Positions 118 through 60,497 of a stretch of 64,000 nucleotides of DNA are shown here, in pieces (the stretch's first letter is position 1; each line of letters begins with the position of its first letter). Under the pieces are notes generated by a model. It was not told the origin of the DNA. It ran no database searches and saw only the letters and a program-made list of their open reading frames with translations. The DNA lies in the NCBI GenBank assembly GCA_964291415.2, contig OZ219920.1, forward strand, positions 1,592,571 to 1,656,570. The letters are read 5' to 3'. The stretch is from Alphaproteobacteria bacterium. Lineage in GTDB: Bacteria > Pseudomonadota > Alphaproteobacteria > SP197. The position numbers and the translations under genes were made by a program.

Positions 118-1341
118 ATGAAGGCACACGACATCCCTGCGGTGGATGACCTGATCGCCCGGCAACGACCCGGCTTCACCCTGGAACAGCCGTTCTACCG
201 GGATCCCGGGATCTTCAGGCGGGACATGGAGAGGGTCGTTTCGAGATCCTGGCTCTATGTCGCCCACGAGAGCGAGATTCCCTCGAGGGGCGACTACCTT
301 GTCTACCGGGTCGGCGAGGAGTCGATCATCCTGGTGCGTGGCCGTGATCTTGAGGTTCGCGCCTTCTTCAATGTCTGCCGTCATCGCGGCAGCCATATCT
401 GCCTCGAGGAACGCGGCAACGCCGGCAAGCTCGTGTGCCCCTATCATGCCTGGACCTACGATCTCGACGGACGCCTCATCGCCGCTCGTTCCATGCCTCA
501 AGGATTCGACAAGGCGGACTATCCACTCCATGGGTGCTCGGTCCGGGTGGCCCAGGGTCTCATCTTCATTTGCCTCGCCGGCGCCGATGATCCGCATGTC
601 GCAGACTTCAGCGGCATTGCCGATCTGCTCGAGTCCTATGCCGGGCTGCATCGTCTGAAGGACACGAAGATCGTGCACCGCGAGGTCTATCCGACCTACG
701 CCAACTGGAAACTCGTCGTCGACAACTTCCGCGAGTGCTATCACTGCTCGCCGGCACACCCCGAGTACACGATGGTCAACGCCTACGTGAAGGCGCACGA
801 CCGCGGTCCCGAGACCTACCGTCCGGCGGTGGATTCCTGGGTCGAAAGGACGAGGAAGCTCGGTCACCCCGTGGACTCGTCGAATGGCGACATCGGCGAC
901 CCGCGCCAGCCTCACAGCGTCTGGCGCCAACCCATTCGGGAGGGCTATCTGACGCTTTCCGAAAACGGGCAGCCCGTCGCCCCCCTGCTTGGCGCCCTGG
1001 AACACTGGGACGGTGGCGAGACTGCCTTCACCCTCGGACCGCTGTCCTATGCCTACCTGTGTGCCGATCATCTCACGATGTTCCGCTTCACGCCTGTCAC
1101 GCCGGAGTTCAGCGAGGTGCTCGTGACCTGGCACGTTCGCGCCGATGCCGACCTGGACCGGGACGTTGATCTCAAGCGCCTGATCTGGATGTGGGACGTC
1201 ACGACCATCGAGGACACGAAGATCATCATCGACAACCAGAAGGGCGTGAACTCCACCCGCTACGCGCCGGGACCCTATGCAACGCTGGAAGACTACTCGG
1301 CGGCCTTCACCGACTGGTACCTCGAGCGCATCGCGTCCTGA
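118..1341 (+). CDS. Rieske non-heme iron oxygenase alpha subunit (GbcA/stachydrine-demethylase-like)
   Basis: Intact Rieske motifs CRHRG and CPYHAW; mononuclear site NWK..DNFRECYHCSPAH; GGGAGG SD before ATG 118. Confidence 0.9.
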   Translation: MKAHDIPAVDDLIARQRPGFTLEQPFYRDPGIFRRDMERVVSRSWLYVAHESEIPSRGDYLVYRVGEESIILVRGRDLEVRAFFNVCRHRGSHICLEERGNAGKLVCPYHAWTYDLDGRLIAARSMPQGFDKADYPLHGCSVRVAQGLIFICLAGADDPHVADFSGIADLLESYAGLHRLKDTKIVHREVYPTYANWKLVVDNFRECYHCSPAHPEYTMVNAYVKAHDRGPETYRPAVDSWVERTRKLGHPVDSSNGDIGDPRQPHSVWRQPIREGYLTLSENGQPVAPLLGALEHWDGGETAFTLGPLSYAYLCADHLTMFRFTPVTPEFSEVLVTWHVRADADLDRDVDLKRLIWMWDVTTIEDTKIIIDNQKGVNSTRYAPGPYATLEDYSAAFTDWYLERIAS

Positions 1342-4743: not shown

Positions 4744-4810
4744 TGAAGTCACCTCGTCTGCCGGGCGGGGCATGGACGCCCGCAGCGTGCAGCCCTATAT
4801 AGCAACAGCC

Positions 4811-7751: not shown

Positions 7752-7802
7752 CCAACCCGGGACTGCTATTCGTCAGCCTCCATTCAACCGGACAGGGCGC
7801 GC

Positions 7803-8399: not shown

Positions 8400-8573
8400 C
8401 GCGTTCCCCGACGGCTGAATCGCGCCTCTTCGGCGGCCGCGTCCAGCCTGTAAGAACCCGGGAACACCAGCATTGGTTGGGTCGTCGCGGGTGACATCCG
8501 CATCGAACCGATTCTTCCATGAGTCGGCCCCCGAGAACACCGGCCAGTCTCCGGGTTTCCGGCAGGCGAGCGG

Positions 8574-31730: not shown

Positions 31731-32980
31731 GTTTCCTTGCAGGCCCGGGCGGCACGCCTGCCGGAGAGAACAGCTCCCTCGATCGTGGCCGGAAGCCCCG
31801 TATCCGTCCAGTCACCGGCAAGGTACAGGTTGTCGAACTCCGTGCGGGTTCCGGGACGCAAGGCGATGGTGTCGGGGTCCTGCGAGATCGTTGCCCGGCG
31901 TTCCTTGATGACGCGCCAGGGAGGCAGCGCATGCGGATCGGCATCGAGAACTGCAGCCACATCACGCCATGCCGTCGCCGCGATATCGTCCAATGGCCGA
32001 CGAATCATGTCATTAGCCGCACTGACTGTGACGGACAGGACCTGGTCTCGTACAAAAATCCACTGAACCATGCCTCCAATCAGTCCGACAAACGGATGGC
32101 CACCAGGAAGCACAACCGGCCCGGGCAGTCGGAAATGGACATTGACGATCCCCTGATGCCTGAGCGGAACCTCAAGGCCCGCCACGAGGTCGCCGACGAC
32201 CGATGGAGGCAGGGCAAGAATCACGCTGTCTTCCTGCATCACTGTGATGCTGTTCGCGGCAAAGTCGAGTCGTTCCACCCTGCCGGCTGCCGTGTGCAAC
32301 CCGCACAGCCGGCTGGACAGCCTGACGTCGACACCCTTGTGCGCGAGGTATCCCAGAGCCGGATCAACGAAGGTGGCCGAGAGCGATTGCCCGGCGACGA
32401 GAGGACGGCACCAGGACTCTCCCTTCATGAAGGTCCTCATGAGCGCCTGGCGCAACAGTCCCGCCGAAGCTTCCGCAAGCGGCGTGTTGAGAACCGCCAC
32501 GGTCAGAGGTTCCCAGAAACACGTCACGAGCCTTCCGGATTGCCCCACGCACTCCGCCACTGTCCGGCTGTCGCTGGCGGTGAGGACAGAAAGTGCGGAG
32601 AGGTAGTGGGCCGGCGCGGTCAGTGGAACCCGGCGTCGCGGATCGAGAATCCACCACGGAAGCCGTCCCTTGCCGGGCCGCACGGTCCACTGTCGCGCGT
32701 CATCCAACTCGACAAATGGATATGCGGCCGGAACCGGTCCCCTGACCTCATCGGCCGCACCGATGGTTTCGAGGTACGCCAGGGCGTGGCGGTTGCCTGT
32801 CATCAACAGGTGATTGCCGTTGTCAATCCGACACTTGAGGCGGGAATCAAGAAGAGACCGGCATCGTCCCCCGGCCTGTGCGGCTGCCTCGTGGAGCACC
32901 ACCCGCTTCCCATCGCCCGCCAGGGAAACGGCGGCCGAAAGACCTGCGAGGCCGGCACCGACAATGTGGATCACGGGCAC
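31727..32980 (-). CDS. hpnE: Hydroxysqualene dehydroxylase HpnE (FAD-dependent)
   Basis: GAGLAGL, AGGRCRS, IDNGNHL, KERRAT, LAGDWTDTGLPATIEGA. Confidence 0.9.
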   Translation of the reverse strand: MPVIHIVGAGLAGLSAAVSLAGDGKRVVLHEAAAQAGGRCRSLLDSRLKCRIDNGNHLLMTGNRHALAYLETIGAADEVRGPVPAAYPFVELDDARQWTVRPGKGRLPWWILDPRRRVPLTAPAHYLSALSVLTASDSRTVAECVGQSGRLVTCFWEPLTVAVLNTPLAEASAGLLRQALMRTFMKGESWCRPLVAGQSLSATFVDPALGYLAHKGVDVRLSSRLCGLHTAAGRVERLDFAANSITVMQEDSVILALPPSVVGDLVAGLEVPLRHQGIVNVHFRLPGPVVLPGGHPFVGLIGGMVQWIFVRDQVLSVTVSAANDMIRRPLDDIAATAWRDVAAVLDADPHALPPWRVIKERRATISQDPDTIALRPGTRTEFDNLYLAGDWTDTGLPATIEGAVLSGRRAARACKET

Positions 32981-46804: not shown

Positions 46805-47725
46805 CTAAGTGGTGCGATATCTCGAGTTGGCGATGAGGCGAGGTTGCGGGGTACCGGTGATGTCACAGTGCACATCGAGCATCGCCGAAAAGTCCTTGCC
46901 GCCAAATCCACGCACCTTTGCCACACTGTAGGCTTCCCGGGCTGCGGCGGCCATCGGCATCGGCACGCCGGTGGCGTTGGCGGCTTCCACGACGAGTGAG
47001 AGATCCTTGTGTGCCAGGTCGATGGTGAATCCGGGGGAGGTGTCATCGGCCAGCACCTTGACGGGCCAGGCCGAACTGATCTGCCCGTTGACGGCCGACG
47101 TGCCACAGATCACGTCGAGCGTGCTGTCGAGATCGAGTCCGAAGGCCGCCGCGAGAACGAGCGCCTCGGCGTTGATCTGGCAGGATGCCGTGGAAATGAA
47201 GTTGTTGACGAGCTTCGTGCGCGTCCCCGTTCCACACGGGCCGCAATGGAAGATCGCCGTCCCCATGGCCTCGAGAAGCGGCCGGACACGCTCAAAATTG
47301 TCGGACGTGCCGCCCACCATGAAGAGGGACTCTCCGGCATCCGCATGGGAGGCAAGACGCCCCACCGGTGCGTCGATGAATTCCAGGCCCCCGTCGTGAC
47401 AGAGTTCGGCCATGGCATCCGTGGTTCCAGGATCGATGGTGCTCATGTCCATGACGAGGGTGCCGCGCCGCGCCGTCGTGAGGATTCCACCCTCACCGGC
47501 AATGACGTCGCGGACGCTGGACGGGCCGGGGAGCATAGTGATCACCACCTCCGCCTCAGCCGCGACCTCCGCCGGTGATGCGGCAGGCACGGCGCCCAGA
47601 CGAGAAAGAATGTCGACCTGACCCTGCACGATGTCGTGAACCACCAGATCGAAGCCCTTGCGCACGAGATTCGAAGCCATGGGACATCCCATGCGCCCAA
47701 GGCCGATGAAACCCGTTGTTCCCAT
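46805..47725 (-). CDS. Beta-hydroxyacid dehydrogenase, YihU (sulfolactaldehyde reductase)-like
   Basis: GFIGLGRMG, DAPVGR, KLVNN, WPVKVL..F.IDLAHKDL. Confidence 0.8.
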   Translation of the reverse strand: MGTTGFIGLGRMGCPMASNLVRKGFDLVVHDIVQGQVDILSRLGAVPAASPAEVAAEAEVVITMLPGPSSVRDVIAGEGGILTTARRGTLVMDMSTIDPGTTDAMAELCHDGGLEFIDAPVGRLASHADAGESLFMVGGTSDNFERVRPLLEAMGTAIFHCGPCGTGTRTKLVNNFISTASCQINAEALVLAAAFGLDLDSTLDVICGTSAVNGQISSAWPVKVLADDTSPGFTIDLAHKDLSLVVEAANATGVPMPMAAAAREAYSVAKVRGFGGKDFSAMLDVHCDITGTPQPRLIANSRYRTT

Positions 47726-47827
47726 GACATCCCTCCGCGTTCGCATCACCTCACGGCTTCTATCAGCGCACCGGAAGCCGTACCAGCAGGACCGGACTCC
47801 TTTCGCAATGACGCTCCTGGAGCATGA

Positions 47828-48454
47828 TCAGGTTCCGCACAGCCGGTCGCCGGCATCCCCGAGACCTGGCACCAGGTAGCCGTGATCGTCCAGACACCGG
47901 TCAATGGCGGCTGTGAAGATTCGAACCTCCGGATGGGCCTTCGCCAGCGCGTCGATTCCCTCGGGCGCGGCCAGGAGGGACATCAGCCGGATGTTGCGGG
48001 CTGACGCGCCTTTCAGCCGTGACAACGCGGCAGACGCTGTGTTGGCCGTCCCGAGCATCGGGTCGAGAACGATGACCGGCCTGTCGGCAAGGTTACTCGG
48101 CACCTTGAAGTAGTATTCGCTCGCCTGAAGCGTGTGCGGGTCCCGCACCAGCCCGATGTAACCGACTGCGGCTGACGGCACCAGTTCAAGCATGCCCTCG
48201 AGCAATCCGTTGCCGGCGCGCAGGACCGAAATCAGGACCGGTTCTCCTTCCTTGAGAAACGGCGCCTCCATCCTGGCAAGCGGTGACTCGATGGTCCGCC
48301 GCACCAGATCCAGATCACGCAGGACCTCGTAACCGACCATCGTTGCGAGTTCACGCATGATCCGGCGGAAGGCGCGGGTTCCGGTTTCCCTGGAACGCAG
48401 AAGGGAGAGCCGGTGCTGAACCAGGGGATGATCGATCACGGTGACACCTGGCAT
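47828..48454 (-). CDS. upp: Uracil phosphoribosyltransferase
   Basis: DHPLVQH, SVLRAG, LDPML, VPGLGDAGDR; AAGGAG SD; C-terminal part of track ORF 47828..50158. Confidence 0.92.
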   Translation of the reverse strand: MPGVTVIDHPLVQHRLSLLRSRETGTRAFRRIMRELATMVGYEVLRDLDLVRRTIESPLARMEAPFLKEGEPVLISVLRAGNGLLEGMLELVPSAAVGYIGLVRDPHTLQASEYYFKVPSNLADRPVIVLDPMLGTANTASAALSRLKGASARNIRLMSLLAAPEGIDALAKAHPEVRIFTAAIDRCLDDHGYLVPGLGDAGDRLCGT

Positions 48455-48568
48455 GGGATACTCCTTCCTGGCGCCGGCGTACCCTGAACTGGTTCCGGTG
48501 GATTGACCGGCGACCGAAACACGACTCAGACTGGCGCTCCACGTTAGCAATTTCACTGGAGAACTGTC

Positions 48569-50668
48569 TTGACCGGGCCTTCGAATCGATCCACTGCCCC
48601 TGGCAGGCGTCTCTTCAGTTTCGGCATCATCACCGACACCCACGTCAACCAGGGTGAGGACGAGACAAATTCGCCCTTCGAATCCGGACGTCTCGCCAAC
48701 CGGCGCATGCGCCATGTCATCCGGGAACTCAATGCGCGGGATCTCGCCTTTGTCGTCCACGTCGGCGACATCGTCCATCCGGTGCCGGCGATCCCCGGAC
48801 TCTATGCCGATGCGGCCCGGCGCTTCTTCGAGGTGTTCGAAACCCTCCGCCATCCTGCCTGGCTCACGCCCGGCAACCACGATGTGGGCGACAAGCCCAA
48901 CGACTGGGCTCCTGCTGCCCGGATCAGCGAGGATCATCTCGTCCTGTGGCAACACCATTTCGGCGACCAGTTCGCGTCGTTTGATCACCAGGAGTGCCAC
49001 TTCGTCATCATCAACGCCCAGGTCATCAACTCGCACCTGGAGGCGGAGGAACGCCAGCGCGCCTGGCTGGAGGACGATCTCCGCAACCACCATGGCCGGC
49101 GCATCTTCCTGTTCAGCCACTATCCGCCCTGTCTCCTGGACGCAGACGAGGACGAGACCTACGACAATATTGGCGAACCCGGCCGTTCCTGGCTCCTCGA
49201 TCTCGCCCGGCAGCACCGGGTCGAAGCCCTGATTGCCGGACATGTCCACAACTTCTGGTACCTCCGGCTCGACTCGACCGAATGCTACATCCTGCCGTCG
49301 ACCGCCTTCGTGCGCTTTGACTACGCGGAGATGCTGAGGGCCTCGCCAGGCGCCGAAACCGAGTTCGGACGCAATGACCGGCCCAAGCTTGGCTATGCCA
49401 TCTGCCATGTCCACGAGAACGGGCACCTGGTCGAGATCGTGCGCACATGGGGAAACACCCTCGACGCCGGGCCGGTTCGGGCAACCGGGCCGGAGTATCG
49501 TCTCGCCGCCATCCATCCGCGCCAGAACAGGCGTGCCGCATTCGGGTTCGACATGCGCCACAACTGGATGGAGATTGTCGAGATTCCTCCCACGGGCGGT
49601 CTCGACGAGTTTGATCGCAAGACCGTGCGCAACGACTACCCGCTGCTCGCCCTGTGGGACATGGCCGTACGGCCCTTGAGGGTGCCGGTACGCGATCTCG
49701 CGAATGAGGCGAATGTCGCGCGCATGAACGTGCTGGCGGAACACGGCCACCTCTTCACTCTCATGTCGTTCGGCGCCCCCACCGGCAACCTGATGGACCG
49801 CCTCAGGGCCCACCACCACCTCTTCCGGACCTGGGATGTCGCCATCAATCCCGAAGTCATCGACCGTGACATCGGCCCCATCGCCTCTGCCGCCAAAGAG
49901 GCCGGTGTACCCCTCGTCCTGTCGCGCCTGCGCTCGATCGACGAACAGCGTGCCGAGGCGGGCAAGTACTACCATTCGATCAACCAGGGTTTCCTCGTCA
50001 GTGATGCAGAGGAGGTCACCGCGATCGCAAGGCTGCCGGAACTCGATGGTGTGCTCGCCGGCGTGGTCTTCCGCCTCACCCTCGACATGCCGGTCTGGGA
50101 AACCGTGGCAGCAGCCAGCGCCGTGGCGACCAGCCTCGACCTCAAGGCCCATGTCCACATGCGCATGGCCGGAACCAGTCCGGCCAGCCCGGTCATGGAC
50201 GACGCCCTCACCGTCCGGCGGATTGCCGAGGCGATGGCGGCAGCAACGACCTTTGCCGATGTCACCGTGTTTGCCGACACCCTGGTCGACATCGACCGTG
50301 GCTACTTTCCCCGGTCAGGCGTTCTCGACCGTCTCTGCAACCCGCGTCCCGCCTACCACGTGGTGCGCCACATGCATGCGGCCCTCGACATCGTCGACGA
50401 CGGACTTTCGCCCGGCGTCGCCAGGGACCTTGCGGGAGGGCGATGCCTCGAGATGAGGGAAGCCGGCAACCCGCTGGTGCTGGCGGTGCCGGAGGACCAG
50501 TCAGCAGCCCTCGCCGTGCCCTGGCCTGGTCACCCCGTTCTCTTGATCAATCTCCTCACCGGTACCGTCACTCCCCACCCGGCATCTCATGAGGTGAAGA
50601 TCGACCCCGCGAACCCGCACCTTCTGTTGGCCGACCCCGACGGAAGCCGTCTTCGCCGCCTTTCCTGA
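48569..50668 (+). CDS. Calcineurin-like metallophosphoesterase fused to a long uncharacterised C-terminal domain
   Basis: DTH, GD, GNHD, H, GHVH motifs in the first ~230 aa; ~400 aa extension; TTG start with GGAG SD. Confidence 0.8.
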   Translation: MTGPSNRSTAPGRRLFSFGIITDTHVNQGEDETNSPFESGRLANRRMRHVIRELNARDLAFVVHVGDIVHPVPAIPGLYADAARRFFEVFETLRHPAWLTPGNHDVGDKPNDWAPAARISEDHLVLWQHHFGDQFASFDHQECHFVIINAQVINSHLEAEERQRAWLEDDLRNHHGRRIFLFSHYPPCLLDADEDETYDNIGEPGRSWLLDLARQHRVEALIAGHVHNFWYLRLDSTECYILPSTAFVRFDYAEMLRASPGAETEFGRNDRPKLGYAICHVHENGHLVEIVRTWGNTLDAGPVRATGPEYRLAAIHPRQNRRAAFGFDMRHNWMEIVEIPPTGGLDEFDRKTVRNDYPLLALWDMAVRPLRVPVRDLANEANVARMNVLAEHGHLFTLMSFGAPTGNLMDRLRAHHHLFRTWDVAINPEVIDRDIGPIASAAKEAGVPLVLSRLRSIDEQRAEAGKYYHSINQGFLVSDAEEVTAIARLPELDGVLAGVVFRLTLDMPVWETVAAASAVATSLDLKAHVHMRMAGTSPASPVMDDALTVRRIAEAMAAATTFADVTVFADTLVDIDRGYFPRSGVLDRLCNPRPAYHVVRHMHAALDIVDDGLSPGVARDLAGGRCLEMREAGNPLVLAVPEDQSAALAVPWPGHPVLLINLLTGTVTPHPASHEVKIDPANPHLLLADPDGSRLRRLS

Positions 50669-50696
50669 AAGCCCGTATGCCAACTCCGGCCGGTGT

Positions 50697-51905
50697 TCAG
50701 GGCCGCTCCATGTCTTCCATGACGAGCTGGTTGAAACGATGGTGGAGCCTGTCCCAGAACGGCGCGTAGTAGTGCTGGCGGCACACGGGGCTTCGGCGAG
50801 CGGCCTGCACGGCTTCGATCATGATCCTGTCTTCGGCGTGGACGACATCGAACAATCTCTGGACCTGCCGTTCCTGGTCCTCGAAGGCGGGATCCTCGAG
50901 CGCTTCGGGAGCATAGAACCGCAGGTGTCTGAGTTCCGTTACGTCCGGACCCAGCGGCAGGGCGATGTTGACCTTGGCGAAGGTGTCGAGCAGCGGAATA
51001 TTGACGTTGGGATAGAGTGTCGTGAAGTAGCCCCGTTCCGGCACGATGCCGGTGTCGTGACCGGCCGAGGGAAGGTGAACCTCGTCATATGTGGCCCCGG
51101 ATTGCTCGCGGGAGTGGGCAAAGGCGAGGAGTGAACCCTCCATGGTGAGTTCGAAGCGGGGCTCTCCGGCCGCTCCGACACGCGGAACCTCGGGGGACTT
51201 GCGGTAGATGTCGTGCGTGAAGGCCTCATGGAGGAGGTTGATGGACGCGTTTTCCTGGTAGGTCTTCCAGTTGGTGCTGACGGTTCTCTCTTCGATGAGC
51301 GGCTGTCCGTCGCCATCACGGGCAGGAACCAGGCGGTCGATGGCAAAGTCGGCGCCGACGAGACGGCGCCAGGGCATCAACCACTCGTCGATATCCGGGG
51401 CTTTGCCATCGGGGTTGATGAAGAGCGTGCCAAACCGCTCGGCGCTCGGAACCTCGACGAGATCGCATGGCCATCCATCCAGGGCCTCGGGGCCGGCCCC
51501 GGGACTGCCGTCCCAGTAGGGGGCGCCCACAAGACGGCCGTCGAGGTCGTAGCGAAGACCATGGTAGGGAGTGTCGATGAACTCCAGGCCCGTTGCCGGG
51601 CGCAGCAGGGCCAGACAGCCGTCATAGGGGACGATGTTGTGAAAGACGCGCAACGTCCCGTCCCTCCCCCGGACCGCCAGCAGCGGCTGATCGAAGAGAT
51701 CGAACGGTCGGGCATCACCAGCACACGGAAGCTCCACGGCGAACATGACGGCGGTCCAGTTTCGCGCGAAGATCCGCTCCACCTCGAGCGCATGCCATGC
51801 AGCGTCCGTGAAGGCCTGGGAGGGAAGTGTCATGGCCCCCCCGATCGGCGCCATCACCCTGTCGCGCTCCGATCGGGTCACCAGTTCAAGAAGTCTCTCG
51901 TCCAT
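50697..51905 (-). CDS. Rieske-oxygenase alpha-subunit homologue with degenerate [2Fe-2S] motif
   Basis: E..RIF..NW, FHN.., PYHG..Y.LDG.L, NWK..EN..H....H, ED..IEAVQ; Rieske Cys/His ligands replaced. Confidence 0.8.
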   Translation of the reverse strand: MDERLLELVTRSERDRVMAPIGGAMTLPSQAFTDAAWHALEVERIFARNWTAVMFAVELPCAGDARPFDLFDQPLLAVRGRDGTLRVFHNIVPYDGCLALLRPATGLEFIDTPYHGLRYDLDGRLVGAPYWDGSPGAGPEALDGWPCDLVEVPSAERFGTLFINPDGKAPDIDEWLMPWRRLVGADFAIDRLVPARDGDGQPLIEERTVSTNWKTYQENASINLLHEAFTHDIYRKSPEVPRVGAAGEPRFELTMEGSLLAFAHSREQSGATYDEVHLPSAGHDTGIVPERGYFTTLYPNVNIPLLDTFAKVNIALPLGPDVTELRHLRFYAPEALEDPAFEDQERQVQRLFDVVHAEDRIMIEAVQAARRSPVCRQHYYAPFWDRLHHRFNQLVMEDMERP

Positions 51906-51970
51906 CCCTCACGCTATCCCCAATCCCCGAATGATCGAGACTGTCTGCACCCCCGGCGCAGCACAGGAAT

Positions 51971-53368
51971 TCAAGCCACCATGTCGGGCTTGAGGGTATG
52001 CCAGTCCGTGATGGACTGGAATGCTCCGGCCACGTCGAGAATGGTCTCTTCCCCGAAAGGGCGGCCCATCAGGGTCAGCGCAACCGGCAGACCCGCTGCA
52101 TTGCGTCCCGAGGGAACCGAGACAGCCGGCAGACCGGTCACATTGGCGATCCATGGCATCATGGTCATCGCGTCCTGCGCGGAGATCCGTCTTGTGCCAA
52201 CAGTGAGGTCCGTATCCCCAATTGCCGGTGCCGCGACGGGGAGGGTTGGCAGGCACACGGCATCGTGGTGCTCGAGAAGTTCCTGAAACCTGGTGACAAG
52301 TTGGTTTCTGAACTGCTGGGCTTTGAGATAGTCGACGGCGGCGATGTGCTGCCCGGCCTGCAGCTGAACCCTGACGTCCTCTCCGTACAAGTCGACGTGG
52401 GTTTCCAAGTATCGTGCATGCCAGGCGGACGCCTCTGCCAGCATGATGACTTTCCAGATGCCAAACCCGCGCTCAAGCCCCGGCACCTCGACTTCGGTGA
52501 TCGTGCAACCCGCTTCCCGGAACACGCCAACAGCGTTCTCGAGGGCGTGGCCGACGGCCTCATCGCAGAGGATTCCTTCGCCACGCAACACCGCGAGCCG
52601 TGTTTGTCCCGACCTCGCGGCGGCACGCCTGTCAACACGGGTCGTGGAGTCCCTAGGGTCTTCGCCGGAAAGGACATCGAGGAGAATTCCCAGGTCCCGC
52701 GCCGAACGGGCCATGGGTCCCGCGACATCGAGGGAAAACGAGAGCGGCAGGACGCCGAAGCGGCTGAGACGCCCGTAGGTCGGCTTGAGACCGCAGACTC
52801 CGCACGCCGCGGCGGGTATTCTCACCGATCCGCCCGTATCACTGCCCAGGGCCGCAGGCACGACACGCGCCGCCAGGGCGGCGGCGGACCCGCCGCTCGA
52901 TCCTCCCGAGATGTGATCGGGGTTCCATGGATTGTGCACAGGACCGAATGCCGACGACGTATTCGTTGCCCCGTAGGCCCACTCATGCATATTGGTCTTG
53001 CCGAAGATGATGGCGCCTGCAGCTCGCAGTCGCTCCACAACCGTCGCATCGATGCCGACAGCGGCATCCGCGAGCACCCGTGAGCATGCCGTTGTCGGAT
53101 AGTCCCTGGTCCAGAAGTTGTCCTTGACCGCCACCGGGATGCCGTGGAGCGGGCCGGCAACGATGCCACCTTCCCTCATGTCATCCAGAGCACGGGCCTC
53201 GGCAAGCACCTTCCCTTCATCCAGGGCAACGTGGGCGTTGATCGTGTCACGCACCCTCGCCGAGGCAGCAAGGCAGGCCTCCGCGAGAGCGACAGCGGTG
53301 ATGTCACGGCGATGCAGACGACGGACAAGATCGCCGACTTCCAGTTCGTTGAGGGGGACCTCAGTCAT
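51971..53368 (-). CDS. Amidase signature enzyme (GatA/AtzE-like)
   Basis: [30 protein letters not shown]: Ser-cisSer-Lys triad intact. Confidence 0.92.
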
Positions 53369-53546
53369 GGCGTTCGACCCGGAAGTGATGTGCCGGCTCC
53401 ATCCACGAAACATCATCGAGACCGGCGAGCGCTCCGAGGGCATCGTTGAGAATGTCGACCACACGGTCGACATCGGCATCCGCGAGGTCCTTCCACCCCA
53501 TGGCCCGGCGGTGGCTGATCACCTGCTCACGCGTCACGCGTGTCAT
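53361..53546 (-). CDS. Small (61 aa) GatC/AtzG-like putative amidase partner
   Basis: Strong AAGGAGG SD; 8-nt overlap with the amidase start; helical pattern ending LDDVSWMEPAHHF. Confidence 0.6.
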   Translation of the reverse strand: MTRVTREQVISHRRAMGWKDLADADVDRVVDILNDALGALAGLDDVSWMEPAHHFRVERHD

Positions 53547-53575
53547 GGTCCCTGGTCCTCCTTGTTCGTGCGCCG

Positions 53576-54274
53576 TCATACTCCAAGCAGGTCATGTAAC
53601 AGATCGCGGTCGCCGACAAGTTCATCGCGCGTGACTTCCCGGGCGATGGTGCCTCCCGCCATGACATAGGCCCGCTCGGCAAGGGAAAGGCAAAAGTCGA
53701 GATTCTGCTCGGCGATGATGATTGTGAGTGTTGCCTCATTCTTCATCGCCATGAGCATGCCGGCGATCTCGTCGACAATGGATGGCTGGACACCCTCGCT
53801 TGGCTCATCGAGCATCAGCACCCTGGGGCGCGTGGCCAGGGCGCGGGCGATGGCGAGGATCTGCTGCTGGCCGCCACTCAGGCTGCCGGCCAGTGCCTCG
53901 GCCTTCTCGCGGAGGATGGGGAAGTCGCTGAGCGCTCGTTCAACCGCCTCCTTCCTGTCGAGACCGCAACCGATGGCCGCCGCCGAGATGTTCTCCGTCA
54001 CGGTGAGACGCGGGAAGACATAGCGGCCCTGCGGAACGTAGCCGAGTCCGGCACGGGCACGCCGCGCAGTGGAAGCGGGAAGCGGTGCACCGTCGAGCGA
54101 TACCTGCCCGCCGAAGACATCGATCAGTCCCATGATGTACTTCAGCAACGTCGTCTTGCCGACGCCATTCCTTCCCAGAAGCGCCACGACCTCCCCGGAC
54201 TTCACGGCTAGCGACACGTTGCGGATGATTCGCGTCTTGCCGTAGCCGCCGGTGGCGTCGGTGATCTCAAACAT
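53576..54274 (-). CDS. Urea/amide ABC transporter ATP-binding protein (UrtE/LivF-like)
   Basis: GRNGVGKTT, GYVPQGR, LSGGQQQ, LDEPSEGVQPS. Confidence 0.9.
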   Translation of the reverse strand: MFEITDATGGYGKTRIIRNVSLAVKSGEVVALLGRNGVGKTTLLKYIMGLIDVFGGQVSLDGAPLPASTARRARAGLGYVPQGRYVFPRLTVTENISAAAIGCGLDRKEAVERALSDFPILREKAEALAGSLSGGQQQILAIARALATRPRVLMLDEPSEGVQPSIVDEIAGMLMAMKNEATLTIIIAEQNLDFCLSLAERAYVMAGGTIAREVTRDELVGDRDLLHDLLGV

Positions 54275-56111
54275 GCTGATGACGGCCCAGGTAGATGTCG
54301 AGCACCCGGTCGTCCTGGCGCAGCGTCTCGATGTCTCCGCGGGCAAACACCTCGCCCTGGTGAAGTACCGTGACATCGGCGTCGAGCGTGCGCACGAAGT
54401 CCATGTCGTGTTCCACCACCACCACGGACGCAGTCCTGGCGAGCGCCCGGACCATATCTGACAGCTGACGGCGCTCCTCGTTTGTCATGCCCGCCGCCGG
54501 CTCGTCGAGCAGGATGACATCGGGCCCCAGGGCAAGCACCATGCCGAGATCCAGCCACTGCTGTTCCCCGTGGGACAGTTCACTCGCCGGCCTCGACGCC
54601 GCATTCCGCATGCCAAGCATGTGGAGCATCTCCGTCGTGATCCAGTCGGCCGTTCGTGCATCCCGGCTACGGCTGTAGGCGGCAACCCACAGGTTGCGGC
54701 GCACGTCGAGATCGGCGAACACCTGTGCCCTCTGGTTCTTGATGCCCAGCCCCATGCGCACCCGGCGAAAGGGGTCGGTCTTCGTGATGTCCTGCCCAGC
54801 CAGCGTGATGCTCCCGCCATCGGGCTTGTAGACGCCGGTGCAGGCCTTGAGATAGGAACTCTTCCCGGCGCCGTTGGGTCCGATGAGGCACCGTACCCTG
54901 CCAGGGGAGAATGATTGGGAAACATGCCTCACCGGAGTGACTCCGCCGAACCGCTTGAACGTGTCCTCGGTCTCCAGAACCACCTGTTTTCCGCTCTCTT
55001 CGCGCAGCAGGTCGAGACGCTCGAAGTCCACACTGAGACTGGACAGGCGCGCCTCGGCGTCCTTGCCCTGATCGCCCCGCCTCACCAGGCGCTTCGTCAG
55101 CTCCATGAGATCCTTCAGGCCGCCGGTCAACCCGTTGCGCAGGAATATCACCAGCAGAATGAGGCAGGCGCCCATGACGAGCGTTGTCTGGCCGCCGATG
55201 ACTCCCCCGCCAAGCCAGAAGGACAGACCACCCACCGCGAGGGCTCCAACAAAGGCACCCACCAGCGTTCCCTTGCCGCCGACGAGGACATAGATGGGCA
55301 CCAGCAGGGCCTCCTGGACACTGAAGACGGAAGGATTGAGATAGTTGGCCCAGGCGCCGAACAGGGCCCCGGCAAGGCCTGCAACGGCTCCGGCGATCGT
55401 GAAGAGAAGAAGCTGGTAGAGCCGGACATCGTAACCGAGAAGTTCGGCCTTGACCGGATCCATGCGTATGCAGTCGATCACCAGTCCGAACGGCGAGCGC
55501 ATCAGGACGTGACTGGCATACCACGCGATGGTGGCGATGACGGCGACGGTAAGGAACATCGCTCCCGGCTCGAGCAACGGAGCGTCATGCCCGAAACCAA
55601 GGATGTACCCCGGGATGTTCGACATGCCGTTGTCGCCGCCGACAACGGCATCGCCTATCGTCGCCGTGAACGACACCGCGACCGTCCACAGCACCAGGGT
55701 GAAGGTGTAGGTGATGATGGTGGTCTGAAGCGGACCGAGGCGACCGTAGAATGTGAGACCACCCATCAGAATCGCCGTTGCCGCTCCCGTCGCCATGCCC
55801 ACCGGCAGCGACCAGACGAGCGTGTTCCCGGTGAGGGACGCACAGTTGATTGCCGTGATACTGCCAAGGTAGCCGCCCACACCGTAGAACGCTGTCTGCC
55901 CGAGGCTCAGGATCCCGCCCCTGCCCCACACCAGGTCAAGGCTGAGACCCAGCAATCCGAAAATGACCCACGACGTCGCGACATAGGCAAGGTAGGGGTC
56001 GAAGGCGAGGCTGGCGACAATCGCCAGACCGACCAGCCCGCCTAACCAGACGAGCGAGAACGGTTCGAAGCGCGCCACCCGGGGCATGTCCGTTTCCACG
56101 GCTCCTGCCAT
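54267..56111 (-). CDS. Fused ABC permease and ATP-binding protein (UrtC-UrtD-like)
   Basis: N-terminal TM region (LDLVWG..SLGQ, GGDNG); C-terminal GPNGAGKS, LSHGEQQWL, LDEPAAG, VEHD. Confidence 0.88.
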   Translation of the reverse strand: MAGAVETDMPRVARFEPFSLVWLGGLVGLAIVASLAFDPYLAYVATSWVIFGLLGLSLDLVWGRGGILSLGQTAFYGVGGYLGSITAINCASLTGNTLVWSLPVGMATGAATAILMGGLTFYGRLGPLQTTIITYTFTLVLWTVAVSFTATIGDAVVGGDNGMSNIPGYILGFGHDAPLLEPGAMFLTVAVIATIAWYASHVLMRSPFGLVIDCIRMDPVKAELLGYDVRLYQLLLFTIAGAVAGLAGALFGAWANYLNPSVFSVQEALLVPIYVLVGGKGTLVGAFVGALAVGGLSFWLGGGVIGGQTTLVMGACLILLVIFLRNGLTGGLKDLMELTKRLVRRGDQGKDAEARLSSLSVDFERLDLLREESGKQVVLETEDTFKRFGGVTPVRHVSQSFSPGRVRCLIGPNGAGKSSYLKACTGVYKPDGGSITLAGQDITKTDPFRRVRMGLGIKNQRAQVFADLDVRRNLWVAAYSRSRDARTADWITTEMLHMLGMRNAASRPASELSHGEQQWLDLGMVLALGPDVILLDEPAAGMTNEERRQLSDMVRALARTASVVVVEHDMDFVRTLDADVTVLHQGEVFARGDIETLRQDDRVLDIYLGRHQHV

Positions 56112-56115
56112 CGGA

Positions 56116-56982
56116 TCAGAGTTTCAGACGCCAGCGTGCGGAGATCCCGAGGGGGAAGATCCGCAGGATCGTGATGGTCGCGATGAAGAACACGACATCA
56201 CCCATGACGGTTGTATAGAAACTCGCCGTCATGCTGGCGATGGAACCCAGGACTCCGCCGGCAGCGACCGTTCCCGACAGGGTGACGGGACCCGCCGCGA
56301 CAACGGCAAGAAAGGCCTTGATGACGAAGGCGAAGCCCATGCTTGGCGTCGCCGGAAACGCGGGAAGCAGGATGGCGCCGGCAAATCCGGCAAGTCCCGA
56401 ACCCAGGGCGAAGGTCATCGTGTTGATGCGTCCGGACTCGATCCCCATCGTTGCCGCGGTCTCCGGATCCTGAATGGCCGCCCGTGCGACAATGCCGTAC
56501 CCGGTACGCGTGAGGAGCCAGTAGAGAAGTCCGATCAGGACCACCGCCACGAGAATGAGGAAGAGCAGGTAGGTGGAAAGCGTGTAGCTCCCGATCTCGA
56601 TGTTGGACTGCGGCATGCCGACACCGGGCGTGACCGTGCCGAATATCAGCACCGCCGACTGGTAGAGCACCAGAGAGAGCCCCCAGGTCGCAAGCAGAGT
56701 GTCGAGAATGCGCCCGTAGAGATGGCGGATGATCGCCCTCTCGACGATGGCGCCGAACAGAGCCGTGACGACGCTGGCCAGAACAACCGCCAGAGGAAAC
56801 GGAATGCCGCTGCGCGTGGCAAACAGCGCCACGTAGGCTCCGAACATGATGAACTCGCCGTGGGCGAGATTGATGACCCCCATCAGTCCGAAGACGATGG
56901 CGAGTCCGACAGTGGCAATGAGCAGAACGGATGCGCTCGACAGGGATGACAGCAGAACTGTCGCAAGGTAGTCGAGTTCCAC
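56116..56982 (-). CDS. Urea/amide ABC transporter permease (UrtB/LivH-like)
   Basis: GLAIVFGLMGVINLAHGEFIM, LLATWG. Confidence 0.9.
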   Translation of the reverse strand: MELDYLATVLLSSLSSASVLLIATVGLAIVFGLMGVINLAHGEFIMFGAYVALFATRSGIPFPLAVVLASVVTALFGAIVERAIIRHLYGRILDTLLATWGLSLVLYQSAVLIFGTVTPGVGMPQSNIEIGSYTLSTYLLFLILVAVVLIGLLYWLLTRTGYGIVARAAIQDPETAATMGIESGRINTMTFALGSGLAGFAGAILLPAFPATPSMGFAFVIKAFLAVVAAGPVTLSGTVAAGGVLGSIASMTASFYTTVMGDVVFFIATITILRIFPLGISARWRLKL

Positions 56983-57070
56983 GGTCGAGACTCTCCGCGT
57001 ACTGGCGCCGGGTCAGGCTGAGAAGGAGCGGGCGACTGCTCCTGCAGCCGCCCGCGTTCCTCTCCAGGGT

Positions 57071-58291
57071 TCAGGGAACGAAGTGTTCCGCCGTGTCAGG
57101 ATTGGCGATCAGGTCACACACCTCGTCCTCGAAACTCGGCGCCACATATTCGAATTTCTCGATGACATCGAAGGCATGTTCACGGTTGCCGCGGACGATG
57201 TAGATGTTCTGACGCAGGTGGTGGGAACCGGGCTGCATGGAGACCGTTCCGTTGGGGCCCTCGAAGGAAACACCGCTCTCGAGCGCGGCGATCACGGCAT
57301 CGTTGTCCGTGGTGCCGGCGATCTCGACGGCAGCGGCCCAGACGTGAACCGCGTTCCAGACGTCGGCCGCCTCGGAGATGATGGGCTCATCCAGTCCGTA
57401 CGCTTCCTCCCACAGGGCCATGAACGGCTCGTTGTTCGGCTCGTCGATCCACATGAAGTACTCCTGGGAAGCGACAATACCCTCACCGGCATCCGGCGAG
57501 ACGACCACCTGCTGGTTGCCCGAACCATAGTTGGTGGAAACGATTCCCATCTTGTCCTTCAGTCCGGCGGCCGCGAACTGCTCCAGGAATCCTGTCTGGT
57601 TGGCGCCCACCGGCAAGGCAACGACGAAGTCCGGATCGGCCGCCTGAATCTTCTGAATCGTCGGCGAATAGTCGGTCACCGTGAGAGGCAGGAAGTCGGC
57701 TCCGAGAACCTCAGCACCAAACTGTTCGGCGTAGTACTCCACCCAGTGGGCCGAGATGGTTCCGAAGTTGTAGTCGGGAGCCATGATGTAGATCCTGGGC
57801 CCGTACTCCCGCACTGCCCAGTCGATGAGTACGCTCATCTGCTGCGACGCCGATGCGCCGGTGATGAATGTCTGCTTGTCGCAGGCGCCGCCCTCATAGA
57901 GAGCACTGTAGAAGTACGGGACCTTCTTTTGCCTCACGATGGGCCGGATAGCTTCCCGCGACGAACTCGTCAGCCCGGCAAACAGGACATCGATCTGATC
58001 GCGCAGAATGAGCGTGTTGGTGTACTGCGTGTACTTGGCGAGATCGGACTGCGCATCGTTCTCGATGACGGTGATCTGGTTGCCCAGAACGCCGCCTCCG
58101 GCATTGATGCTGTCGACGGCAAGGTGCAGTGCCTGACTCTGCTGAATACCGTAAATGTTGAGTCCGCCGGTCAGATCGAAGATCGCGCCGACCTTGATCT
58201 CGTCGTCAGCCCAGGCCCCGGTTCCCAGGGTGAGCGCCAGAACGACGGCGGCTGCCCGGGTCACTCTCGCGCCCTTCATGAAGTCTCGCAT
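57071..58291 (-). CDS. Urea/amide ABC transporter substrate-binding protein (UrtA/AmiC family)
   Basis: Signal peptide; INAGGGVLG, TSSSREAIRP, YEGG, DYNFG; GGGAGG SD. Confidence 0.88.
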   Translation of the reverse strand: MRDFMKGARVTRAAAVVLALTLGTGAWADDEIKVGAIFDLTGGLNIYGIQQSQALHLAVDSINAGGGVLGNQITVIENDAQSDLAKYTQYTNTLILRDQIDVLFAGLTSSSREAIRPIVRQKKVPYFYSALYEGGACDKQTFITGASASQQMSVLIDWAVREYGPRIYIMAPDYNFGTISAHWVEYYAEQFGAEVLGADFLPLTVTDYSPTIQKIQAADPDFVVALPVGANQTGFLEQFAAAGLKDKMGIVSTNYGSGNQQVVVSPDAGEGIVASQEYFMWIDEPNNEPFMALWEEAYGLDEPIISEAADVWNAVHVWAAAVEIAGTTDNDAVIAALESGVSFEGPNGTVSMQPGSHHLRQNIYIVRGNREHAFDVIEKFEYVAPSFEDEVCDLIANPDTAEHFVP

Positions 58292-58531
58292 GATTGTTCC
58301 TCCCTTGTGATCGAGATCGGTCCCTGCGATACCTGACAACAGGCACGGGATGACGACCGATCGACCGGTTGATCCCGGTTTGACATGTCCTGATTTCCGG
58401 ACGCTGAACTCTACATCACCGCCATCAGCGATTGCAAAGAAGCCGGCAGCCTGTCCGGCACCTGAAGGCGCCGTAAGCCAGACCGACCTGGCACGCGAGG
58501 TCATGCGCCAACCACATCCGGCGACACACTC

Positions 58532-58918
58532 CTACAGTGCGCGGATGGGACCTCCGTAACGCGCCAGCGTCTTGTCGCCGGTCAGCAGAGTGATGCGCTC
58601 GACGCGCGCCTGGGCAACCAGGAGGCGATCGAAGGGGTCACCGTGAAGCAACGGAAGCAAGCCTACTTCCACGGCATGCGCACCGGTCACGGGAAGCTCG
58701 GCATAACCGTTCGCCAGCAAGCTGCGGCGCAGGACATGCGGGTCGACCCGGAAATCGGCGCGCCCGAGTCCGTTCTTTATCGCGATTTCCCAAAGCGACG
58801 CGGCACTCACCACCAACTCGGTTCCGGGCTCAACTATGAGATCGCGCGCCTCCACCGGAAGCTTTGCCGATCCCTGTGCCGCCCAAAGCAACAGGTGCGT
58901 GTCAAGCAGGAGCCTCAC
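58532..58918 (-). CDS. vapC: Type II toxin, PIN-domain VapC family
   Basis: LLLDTH, SAASLWEIAIK, HGDPFDRLLVAQA, LLTGD. Confidence 0.93.
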   Translation of the reverse strand: MRLLLDTHLLLWAAQGSAKLPVEARDLIVEPGTELVVSAASLWEIAIKNGLGRADFRVDPHVLRRSLLANGYAELPVTGAHAVEVGLLPLLHGDPFDRLLVAQARVERITLLTGDKTLARYGGPIRAL

Positions 58919-59154
58919 CCGCGCCCCGAAAACAGGGTGCGGATTTCTTCCGAACCCATGCTGTCGAAATCGTCCGGTACGGAGATCTGTCCGGCCAGGA
59001 AACCGATTCGATGCCGCGCATCCGGAGCCTCGAGAGCGACGACCTTGACCATCGGCTTGCCGGCGCGCGCGATGATGAATGACTCGCCCTTGGCAGCCGC
59101 CTCGACAAGGCGCGACAGATGCGTCTTGGCTTCGTGCATGTTGACGGTGCGCAT
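58915..59154 (-). CDS. Type II antitoxin, Phd/YefM family
   Basis: VNMHEAKTHLSRLVE...GE..II.RAGKP; GTGA overlap with the toxin. Confidence 0.93.
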   Translation of the reverse strand: MRTVNMHEAKTHLSRLVEAAAKGESFIIARAGKPMVKVVALEAPDARHRIGFLAGQISVPDDFDSMGSEEIRTLFSGRG

Positions 59155-59172
59155 GACGTGCTTCCTTCTTTC

Positions 59173-59199
59173 TGAACTAAGTTTACTAAACTTAGTTCA
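59173..59199. promoter_or_regulatory. Perfect palindromic operator of the TA operon
   Basis: TGAACTAAGTTTA-C-TAAACTTAGTTCA, overlapping a minus-strand TTGCAA-N16-TAAACT promoter-like element. Confidence 0.75.
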
Positions 59200-59453
59200 T
59201 ATTGCAATCCTGGAATCAATCTCGAAGATGATGACAGGGCTCCGGTCAATGTCAGGCGCAATGAGGTTGGCCAGTGTCCACGAACAGGCATTCACGACTT
59301 GCATGCCTGCCAGGCGGGACGCTCCACGGACGGCAAAGGCGCGTAGCGCGACATCGGAATCTTCGATTGGTTCGCCATTCCGAGGCGGTGGTGGACGGTC
59401 CGGGAGGTCCGGGCCATGATGCGCCCGCATCACGAGTGGGAAGTCTGGTCAGC

Positions 59454-60497
59454 ATGAAGTATCGGAAACTTGGACGTACCGGGATCGACGTCTCGCTGCT
59501 TTGTCTCGGCAGCATGAACTGGGGCAGCAACAGCACCGAGGCCGAGGGCCACCGGCAGATGGATCAGGCCTTCGAGCACGGTGTGAATTTCATCGACACC
59601 GCCGAGATGTACGCGGTGCCGTCAAGCGCCGAACACTACGGCCGGAGCGAGGAGGTCATCGGCACCTGGATGAAAAGCCGGGCGAACCGCGACCGCGTGA
59701 TCCTCGCCACGAAGGTCGCCGGGCCGGGCGATCATTTCACGTACATCCGCGACGGCAAGCCACGCTTCAACAGATGGCATATCGAGCGGGCCATTGATGC
59801 CAGTCTGAAGCGCCTGCAGACCGATTACGTCGATCTCTACCAGCTTCACTGGCCGGAACGGCCCACCGCCACCTTCGGGCGCCTGGGATACCACTATCCC
59901 GAGACCGACGACTGGACACCGCTGGAGGAAACCCTCGAGGCCCTCGATGGTCTCGTGAAAGCCGGAAAGGTGCGCTTCATCGGTGTGTCCAACGAAACGC
60001 CCTGGGGCACCATGCGCTTCCTCCATCTCTCCGAGACACTGGGTTTGCCACGCATCGTCTCGAACCAGAATCCCTACAGCCTGCTCAACAGGTCATTCGA
60101 GGCCGGTTGCTCCGAGATCACGCGATTTGAACAGGTCGGACTTCTTGCCTATGCGCCGATGGCCGCCGGAGCCCTGTCGGGCAAGTACCTCGGCGGTGCC
60201 CGGCCGGCTGGCGCCCGCATGACCATGTATCCGTCGAACCGGCGCTATCTTGGACCGCCCAACGCCGAACCGGCGATCCAGGCTTACGTCGATCTGGCGC
60301 GCCGCTTCGATCTCGAGCCCGGCGTCATGGCGCTGGCCTGGGTCAACCGGCAGCCCTTCACGACTTCGACCATCATCGGTGCGATGAACGCGGAGCAGCT
60401 TGCAAGCGACCTTGCCAGTGTCGATGTCGAACTGCCCGAGGAACTCGTCGAGGCCATCGAGGAAACCCACCGCCGCTACACCTATCCCTGTCCCTGA
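59454..60497 (+). CDS. Aldo/keto reductase (Tas-like)
   Basis: FIDTAEMY, ATKV, DLYQLHWP, GVSNETPWG, QNPYSLLNR. Confidence 0.92.
   Translation: MKYRKLGRTGIDVSLLCLGSMNWGSNSTEAEGHRQMDQAFEHGVNFIDTAEMYAVPSSAEHYGRSEEVIGTWMKSRANRDRVILATKVAGPGDHFTYIRDGKPRFNRWHIERAIDASLKRLQTDYVDLYQLHWPERPTATFGRLGYHYPETDDWTPLEETLEALDGLVKAGKVRFIGVSNETPWGTMRFLHLSETLGLPRIVSNQNPYSLLNRSFEAGCSEITRFEQVGLLAYAPMAAGALSGKYLGGARPAGARMTMYPSNRRYLGPPNAEPAIQAYVDLARRFDLEPGVMALAWVNRQPFTTSTIIGAMNAEQLASDLASVDVELPEELVEAIEETHRRYTYPCP

Follow-up and report, generated by a model that had tools for sequence, protein, structure and literature searches.

A conserved clade of Rieske oxygenase homologues that has lost its [2Fe-2S] ligands and keeps its mononuclear metal site

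What becomes of a Rieske oxygenase when the ligands of its Rieske cluster are gone? The defining features of Rieske oxygenases are a pair of metal centers and a fixed electron path; in the canonical alpha3 enzymes, an electron leaving one subunit's Rieske cluster reaches the mononuclear iron of the next by way of a bridging carboxylate. The question is raised by a gene at positions 50697..51905 (minus strand) of a 64,000-nucleotide stretch of an alphaproteobacterial genome (assembly GCA_964291415.2, contig OZ219920.1, positions 1,592,571 to 1,656,570), here called the window. An earlier note on this DNA had claimed that the protein encoded there, P0002, lacks three of the four [2Fe-2S] ligands and the bridging carboxylate but keeps its iron site, and that this is not decay. 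We find that the residues of the electron relay were lost together, that this loss is conserved, and that the catalytic metal site is retained; the gene is not decaying.

The 402-amino-acid frame is intact, as previously reported, and runs on the minus strand from an ATG at 51905 to a stop at 50697, with no internal stops; the plus-strand reading of the same stretch is interrupted by a stop. Its GC content (0.64) and its GC content at third codon positions (0.78) are ordinary values for its own genome. Based on the list of open reading frames (ORFs) and their translations, Pfam matches, an AlphaFold2 (AF2) model, and Foldseek, the product is a cluster-less homologue of Rieske oxygenase alpha subunits. 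Residues 49-130 (51516..51761, minus strand) form a Rieske-like domain with degenerate ligands and a retained fold, which scores 27.4 bits against PF00355 (cut-off, 20.3), and residues 209-399 (50709..51281, minus strand) form the catalytic Ring_hydroxyl_A/SRPBCC domain (PF00848, 61.8 bits). The window supplies its own control: a canonical GbcA-like alpha subunit, P0001, encoded at 118..1341 on the plus strand, has the motifs CRHRG, CPYH, and RECYHCSPAH, scores 65.5 bits for the Rieske and 88.3 bits for the Ring_hydroxyl_A domain, and was rightly taken as an intact Rieske protein. It reaches 322.7 bits with the NCBIfam GbcA model, under the cut-off of 670.

In BLASTP alignments, the CRHRG and CPYH of P0001 fall exactly on VPYDG and TPYH of P0002, in agreement with the translation. 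The first degenerate box, FHNIVPYDGC (residues 88-97; 51615..51644, minus strand), has Val92 for the Cys of ligand 1, Tyr94 for the His of ligand 2, and Asp95 for the usual Arg, followed by the family-specific Cys97. In the second box, TPYHG (residues 112-116; 51558..51572, minus strand), Thr112 replaces the Cys of ligand 3, and the His of ligand 4 is retained as His115. P0002 thus reads VPY...TPYH in place of CxH...CxxH, with one ligand of four left, and the codons for Val92 (GTC) and Thr112 (ACT) are each two changes away from TGY, in line with the earlier remark that both need more than one base change. The segment ENASINLLHEAFTH (residues 218-231; 51213..51254, minus strand) has a one-residue insertion relative to canonical relatives, before the first iron-binding His. 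Here Asn223 lies three residues ahead of that His, the offset at which a bridging Glu or Asp stands in 103/103 canonical relatives, so the bridging carboxylate is indeed missing. The iron ligands His226 and His231 of the same segment and Asp359 of the motif HAEDR (codon at 50829..50831, minus strand) leave the 2-His-1-carboxylate site intact in the sequence, within a recognizable Ring_hydroxyl_A domain. Other catalytic-domain motifs of canonical enzymes (NWK, EN, and ED) are also kept.

We counted residues at these positions in 115 family rows and 103 canonical rows; family rows are interrelated, and their counts are therefore not independent. All canonical rows have the four expected ligands. 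The family has Cys in 75 rows, Val in 28, Ser in 9, and Gly in 3 at ligand 1; Tyr in 105, Phe in 7, and His in 3 at ligand 2; and Thr in 45, Val in 37, Ala in 10, Ser in 9, Gly in 8, and Ile in 6 at ligand 3, where Cys never occurs. Ligand 4 is His in 114 rows and Tyr in 1. The bridging position is Asn in 113 rows and Glu in 2, versus Glu in 73 and Asp in 30 of the canonical rows. Both iron-binding His residues are present in 115/115 family rows and the Asp in 114/115, so the survival of the mononuclear site extends from P0002 to nearly every relative. The family also has fixed residues of its own: Pro93 (108/115), Asp95 (115/115; Arg in 101/103 canonical rows), and Cys97 (104/115).

Could other residues hold a Rieske cluster in P0002? 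Two substitute ligands were considered and rejected: Cys97, which is replaced in 11/115 family rows, and His89, which is also common in canonical relatives (69/103 rows). An alternative-ligand cluster through the Cys of YDGC is unlikely, because of those replacements and because in every family row at least two of the four canonical ligand positions lack their usual residue. Since P0002 has lost three ligands and has Asn as its bridging residue, the canonical relay cannot operate in it.

The cluster-less state is widespread. A word-indexed search with P0002 gave 465 matches at E <= 1e-3, and CxH...CxxH occurs in none of the 120 matches listed (46-92% identity), of which 118 cover box 1 and 119 cover box 2. 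Because it is common to all listed homologues that cover the boxes, the cluster-less state is no chance event. An exhaustive phmmer search of 1.84 billion representatives produced 5800 matches at E <= 1e-3 and 65 at E <= 1e-30, from which 106 sequences of at least 330 amino acids were aligned. The first canonical CRHRG/CPYH protein in this ranking is P0155 (E 6e-46, 34% identity), and the cluster-less motif holds in full-length matches down to P0156 (E 3e-44). The ESM Atlas returned generic Rieske/Ring_hydroxyl_A clusters only and gave no lead.

We also scanned one genome per species for 185,579 species. Among 157 pattern-matched stretches, 124 encode a relative of P0002, and 77 loci were kept. 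These derive from Alpha- and Gammaproteobacteria, Myxococcota, Chloroflexi, Nitrospinaceae, and others, and many are metagenome-assembled genomes from sponges or marine samples. Two carriers are cultured strains, Leucothrix arctica IMCC9719 (L054) and Pseudomaricurvus alkylphenolicus KCTC 32386 (L065). Cluster-less motifs were found in 75/77 loci; the other two (L011 and L037) reflect a wrong ORF pick or a broken frame.

Phylogenetic analysis (IQ-TREE quick search, LG+G4, 136 rows, with Shimodaira-Hasegawa-like approximate likelihood ratio test [SH-aLRT] support only) included representatives of 340-470 amino acids and own-genome paralogues of at least 370 amino acids; shorter matches and the split copy C2:259007 were excluded. 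All 32 full-length cluster-less representatives (50% identity level) form one clade with SH-aLRT support of 100. This clade lies inside the quaternary-ammonium (CntA/GbcA/Stc2-like) Rieske oxygenases, and its sister is a group of 10 canonical proteins (joint support, 97), a placement that was reproduced after 8 rows were added. With a distant paralogue as the root, P0146 and P0156 branch off at the base and are without the ligands and the insertion but still have Glu at the bridging offset; P0153, on the next branch, also lacks the insertion and already has Asn; the crown group has both insertion and Asn. Because P0146 and P0156 lack the ligands yet have Glu, this quick tree suggests that loss of the cluster preceded loss of the bridging carboxylate, as would be expected if the bridge had no remaining use.

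The gene is under purifying selection. Between the window gene and 14 orthologues, the ratio of nonsynonymous to synonymous substitution rates (dN/dS, Nei-Gojobori) is 0.066-0.204, with 0.020-0.231 for the Rieske-like part and 0.055-0.179 for the catalytic part. Mean pairwise identity within the family is similar in the Rieske-like (0.60) and catalytic (0.58) domains. At E <= 1e-70, the gene is present in 20/22 other species of the same genus, in one of two other genera of the family, and in none of the 16 other families of the class that were sampled. Contigs from one sponge metatranscriptome library partly cover the gene of a close relative at ~92-96% identity (462 nucleotides with 35 differences, 156 with 9, and 306 with 12). 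This is a weak hint of expression, as RNA libraries can hold DNA, the contigs reveal neither strand nor level, and the uncovered stretch 51621-51953 is uninformative. In sponge and reef metagenome runs the shares stayed below 0.2, which we do not take as evidence of habitat.

Might P0002 still be a decaying or recently inactivated paralogue? Its genome has 39 PF00848 matches, and such redundancy is what that idea has in its favor. We nevertheless give it practically no credence, since the frame is intact, selection is purifying and not relaxed, most congeners retain the gene, and the clade is old and monophyletic with invariant residues of its own (Pro93, Asp95, and Asn223). Selection, retention, and clade evidence together refute decay, in line with the earlier note, and close homologues with an intact CxH...CxxH were not seen among those listed.

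The structural model supports retention of the whole fold. The AF2 model of P0002, built from an 85-row alignment, has a predicted local distance difference test score of 93.9 (96-98 in the Rieske-like part) and a predicted template modeling (TM) score of 0.92. The top Foldseek matches are CntA structures (6zgp, 6y9c, and 6y8j; E ~3e-26, TM scores of 0.72-0.83), followed by Stc2 (4qur and 3vca) and 3n0q, which align over both domains and ~400 columns, and then by biphenyl-type dioxygenases. P0002 therefore belongs to the Rieske fold by both its PF00355 score and its alignment to CntA and Stc2, and the best PDB sequence matches again include 6y9c and 6y8j (residues 24-372). P0002 resembles the alpha3-type group V enzymes CntA, Stc2, and GbcA in length, two-domain order, and 2-His-1-carboxylate site; unlike them, it has only the last His of the [2Fe-2S] ligands and Asn for the essential bridging Glu205. 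A Cys-x-x-Cys pair beside the mononuclear iron is described as common in group V (PMC10952381); it is absent from P0002 (NLLHEAFTH), in contrast to ECYHC in the control. Tyr203 of CntA, the aromatic residue that makes a pi-cation contact with the quaternary ammonium, corresponds by offset to Ser221/Ile222, which are not aromatic, an equivalence made uncertain by the one-residue insertion. GbcA is among the best NCBIfam models for P0002, yet the score is 51.9 bits against a cut-off of 670, and other members of the family score 0-104 bits.

The nearest precedent for the cluster-less clade is NdmC, a component of the NdmCDE 7-methylxanthine N-demethylase of Pseudomonas putida CBB5. As described in a review (PMC10380055), it lacks an N-terminal Rieske cluster, keeps a catalytic non-haem iron domain, and relies on the reductase NdmD, which carries an additional Rieske domain, and on the glutathione S-transferase (GST)-like NdmE. 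NdmC and P0002 thus have in common a Rieske oxygenase ancestry, the lack of a cluster of their own, and a preserved catalytic domain. Compared with that description, P0002 differs in retaining the whole Rieske fold in degenerate form and in its Asn bridge. Another point of comparison is the two-chain chlorophyllide a oxygenase of Micromonas pusilla (MpCAO), in which, according to PMC9615114, the Rieske and mononuclear-iron functions are on separate polypeptides. In MpCAO the gene is split and both cofactors persist; in the clade of P0002 the cluster is gone and no partner gene is fixed.

What, then, does the protein do? The invariant iron triad argues for continued metal binding and catalysis. 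We consider it quite possible, if somewhat short of probable, that P0002 functions, within a separate and conserved clade derived from alpha3-type CntA/GbcA/Stc2-like oxygenases, as a mononuclear-iron enzyme that works without the Rieske relay. In such a scenario, the clade would have given up first its [2Fe-2S] cluster and later the bridging carboxylate, with the Rieske fold staying as a scaffold around a persistent 2-His-1-carboxylate site, and the resulting mononuclear non-haem iron enzyme would oxidize a small nitrogen-containing metabolite of the amine, amide, or guanidino type. There would be no relay from NADH through a reductase and a Rieske center to the iron; electrons would come from the substrate, or alternatively H2O2 might be used via the "peroxide shunt," which is already possible in canonical relatives such as CntA. 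It is reported that CntA oxidizes carnitine with H2O2, without reductase or NADH (PMC7948474; PMC10952381). Metal binding, catalysis, reductase independence, and substrate class are what we infer here. We favor an enzyme without an external reductant because the relay is broken, the triad is invariant, CntA is active with H2O2, and a flavin oxidase adjoins many members of the family.

The last point comes from gene neighborhoods. We called ORFs crudely in the 77 loci plus the window segment (78 loci), clustered them, and scanned cluster representatives with Pfam; the two nearest ORFs per side were scanned in 76 loci (282 ORFs in total). Within two genes of the family gene, a flavin amine oxidase of the H2O2-forming type (PF01593) occurs in 13/76 loci and is the co-oriented upstream neighbor in 9. 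The same interval includes a metallo-beta-lactamase fold protein in 15/76 loci, an alpha/beta hydrolase in 9/76, a luciferase-like monooxygenase in 7/76, and an arginase family protein in 5/76. At least one amine-oxidizing or C-N-cleaving enzyme (amine oxidase, amidase, arginase-family protein, amidohydrolase, or similar) lies within two genes in 34/76 loci. It is conceivable, though we regard it as unlikely at this level of detail, that the clade is a new class of self-sufficient non-haem-iron oxygenases, evolved from Rieske oxygenases that shed their entire electron-delivery chain, whose substrates in marine and sponge-associated bacteria would be nitrogenous metabolites; they would work either as physiological H2O2 peroxygenases, fed in many loci by the flavin amine oxidase encoded directly upstream, or as substrate-driven enzymes. 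As a guide to substrate, the neighborhood was rejected as too variable for naming a compound.

The same neighbors bear on a nonredox alternative, in which a Lewis-acidic Fe(II), Mn, or Zn held by the triad would promote hydrolysis, elimination, or isomerization of an amide- or amine-type substrate. In its favor, the family keeps an invariant metal triad after losing the entire electron path, and hydrolases (amidase, amidohydrolases, and the metallo-beta-lactamase, alpha/beta hydrolase, and arginase groups) dominate the neighborhood. The frequent co-oriented flavin amine oxidase points instead to oxidative chemistry, the canonical motifs NWK, EN, and ED are kept, and we know of no hydrolytic Ring_hydroxyl_A domain that could serve as a precedent; a literature search turned up none either. 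On balance, we judge nonredox chemistry quite unlikely.

A further alternative is that P0002 has no catalytic role and serves as a structural or regulatory subunit or as a ligand-binding SRPBCC protein on the old fold. SRPBCC domains often serve as binding modules, some NCBI records of the family are named "SRPBCC family protein," and regulators (TetR and LysR) adjoin the gene in several loci. Invariance of three metal ligands from Alpha- and Gammaproteobacteria to Myxococcota, Chloroflexi, and Nitrospinaceae would be difficult to account for if the protein had no metal-dependent role, however, and the operon-like placement amid catabolic enzymes also speaks against a noncatalytic protein, which we consider improbable.

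The main rival is that electrons are supplied in trans, by a separate Rieske protein or in a mixed oligomer in which the Rieske domain of a canonical alpha subunit faces the iron site, an arrangement resembling NdmC with NdmD or MpCAO. In 8/76 loci (L019, L058, L064, L067, L069, L071, L074, and L077), a gene for a canonical Rieske alpha subunit is found no more than two genes from the family gene. In four of these, all from Pseudomonadales (L067, L069, L071, and L074; ~6850-9200 in each), this gene immediately precedes the cluster-less one in the same orientation, and because the canonical neighbors are orthologous and form their own clade (support, 99), the pair is conserved. Consistent with trans supply as well, His115, which corresponds to the bridge-contacting Rieske His of canonical enzymes, is kept in 114/115 rows, and the genome encodes ~34 canonical paralogues that could act as donors. 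On the other side, the bridge of the receiving subunit is Asn in 113/115 rows, and in CntA every E205 mutant tested, E205Q among them, was inactive, with a second study cited there for the inactivity of E205D and E205Q (PMC7948474). No canonical partner lies within two genes in 68/76 loci, the window and its close relatives included. An NdmD-like Rieske-FNR (ferredoxin-NADP reductase) protein was found neither in the window nor in the 77 related loci, and no fused or longer family forms (705-2010 amino acids) appeared at E <= 1e-30, which is weak evidence. We find trans supply unlikely overall. Two side observations touch on these partners: in L069, an additional VanA-type Rieske gene precedes the canonical alpha gene, and in only two loci, L059 (7315-7974) and L061 (7300-7971), the cluster-less gene is immediately preceded by a GST gene, which recalls NdmE.

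The absence of a reductase deserves separate comment. No Fer2/FNR-type reductase was present among the 282 neighbors in 76 loci, and tblastn searches of the 77 loci with the genome's own FNR-type reductase and with an adrenodoxin-type ferredoxin gave no match at E <= 1e-4. The earlier note was correct that no ferredoxin or reductase gene lies in the operon of P0002; as an argument for a repurposed enzyme, that absence fails. Of the 39 PF00848 matches in this genome, which include fragments and a split copy, 34 matched ORFs have CxH...CxxH, and the single NAD_binding_1 match is a 326-amino-acid FNR+Fer2 protein on a different contig (C2:914192-914788). With only one FNR-type reductase, the canonical oxygenases, P0001 included, also have no reductase beside them, and this large oxygenase repertoire apparently shares the one predicted enzyme.

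Other paralogues in the same genome (G000) merit mention. A second degenerate Rieske paralogue outside the window (C2:1080044-1080595, plus strand) reads FHNVCRYRR...SPCRGW, so that one of four ligands is left; it has Glu where the bridging residue is expected and keeps the iron triad. Because it is placed inside a canonical clade on the tree, it represents an independent loss of cluster ligands. A biphenyl-dioxygenase-like alpha gene (C2:258369-259099, minus strand) has its Rieske and catalytic parts in separate ORFs and is probably a frameshifted copy. Some paralogue pairs have identical ligand stretches (C4/C3 and C3/C5), possibly reflecting 9% contamination or duplicated contigs.

Several points weigh against the reductant-independent iron enzyme that we favor. 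No oxidase adjoins the gene in the window, where the nearest PF01593 gene is ~18 kb away, so the H2O2 idea rests on more distant relatives. The canonical alpha genes near 8/76 loci, above all the conserved Pseudomonadales partner, fit trans electron supply or a mixed oligomer, and the lack of a nearby reductase is uninformative where one reductase serves ~34 canonical paralogues. The neighborhoods depend on crude ORF calling, peroxide-shunt turnover of canonical enzymes is slow, and even with Asn as the bridging residue a hydrogen-bond path might persist. Taking both sides together, the data lean toward a repurposed metalloenzyme for the window's clade, and the other option, a subunit that receives its electrons from an external Rieske protein, stays alive for the Pseudomonadales subclade.

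In the window itself, the gene follows an amide-related gene set on the minus strand, in the order binding protein, permease, permease-ATPase fusion, ATPase, amidase, and P0002 gene. The ATP-binding cassette (ABC) transporter set (53576..58504) consists, by Pfam, of a urea/amide-type binding protein (57071-58504), whose nearest model is urea_ABC_arch (358.8 bits, against a cut-off of 494.8), a permease (56116-56982), a permease-ATPase fusion (54267-56111), and an ATPase (53576-54376). In the binding protein, ~100 residues precede the Pfam domain, indicating either a start further in or a long leader. The amidase-signature amidase (51971..53479, minus strand; PF01425, E 9.5e-120; no NCBIfam cut-off reached) ends 65 bp upstream of the P0002 gene. 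Downstream lies a convergent metallophosphoesterase gene (48569..50668, plus strand), which is kept downstream in close relatives. A minus-strand ORF overlapping it (47828..50158, 776 amino acids) is mostly spurious, with its last ~200 residues corresponding to uracil phosphoribosyltransferase. The distant flavin amine oxidase gene is at ~31739-32950 (minus strand), one of ~nine such genes in the genome. An Rfam search of 47000-60000 had no match at E <= 0.1, and a promoter and terminator scan of 50300-52200 detected nothing.

This arrangement is not general, and here the expectation of a conserved amidase/ABC neighborhood did not hold. Among the 10 relatives with at least 87% identity, the amidase is the upstream neighbor in 4 (L001, L002, L004, and L005), as it is in the window, and nowhere else; it is three genes off in L006. 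Five others (L003, L007, L018, L028, and L029; 87-92% identity) keep the gene and, contig permitting, its downstream neighbors and have different upstream genes. Overall, the amidase cluster occurs in 10/78 loci and the ABC transporter set in 6/78. Elsewhere, in Thiothrix and Leucothrix (L050, L054, and L056; ~4500-7700 in each), the gene adjoins a divergent pair, an aromatic amino acid lyase (~611 amino acids) and a TauD-like dioxygenase, followed by two conserved ORFs without a Pfam match. GFA, sulfatase, and sulfotransferase genes were also seen as neighbors.

In public databases, members of the family are named "Rieske 2Fe-2S domain-containing protein," "choline monooxygenase," or "aromatic ring-hydroxylating oxygenase subunit alpha." As to the ligands predicted from these sequences, the first of these names is wrong; the second and third are unproven. 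For P0002, its family, and the canonical sister group alike, every NCBIfam model scores below its cut-off. A full-text literature search, with most subscription journals outside its coverage, found no paper on such a cluster-less clade, and in a 2025 review (PMC12445004) the words "NdmC" and "lacks" are absent and the single "lacking" refers to beta subunits. The clade, common in marine and sponge-associated bacteria, is apparently undescribed.

According to PMC10952381, CxH/CxxH and the iron-site ligands are the identifying feature of all five Rieske oxygenase groups, a rule of conservation at both centers from which this clade departs. It does so in several phyla, and near-universally in one sponge-associated genus, by keeping the iron site and giving up both cluster and bridge. 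If its members are active, they show a Rieske oxygenase scaffold working without a reductase, which is relevant to biocatalysis, whose use of Rieske oxygenases is hampered mainly by their dependence on matched redox partners. The question can be taken to the bench because two cultured strains carry members. Active members would also fill a gap in the nitrogen-compound catabolism of marine symbionts.

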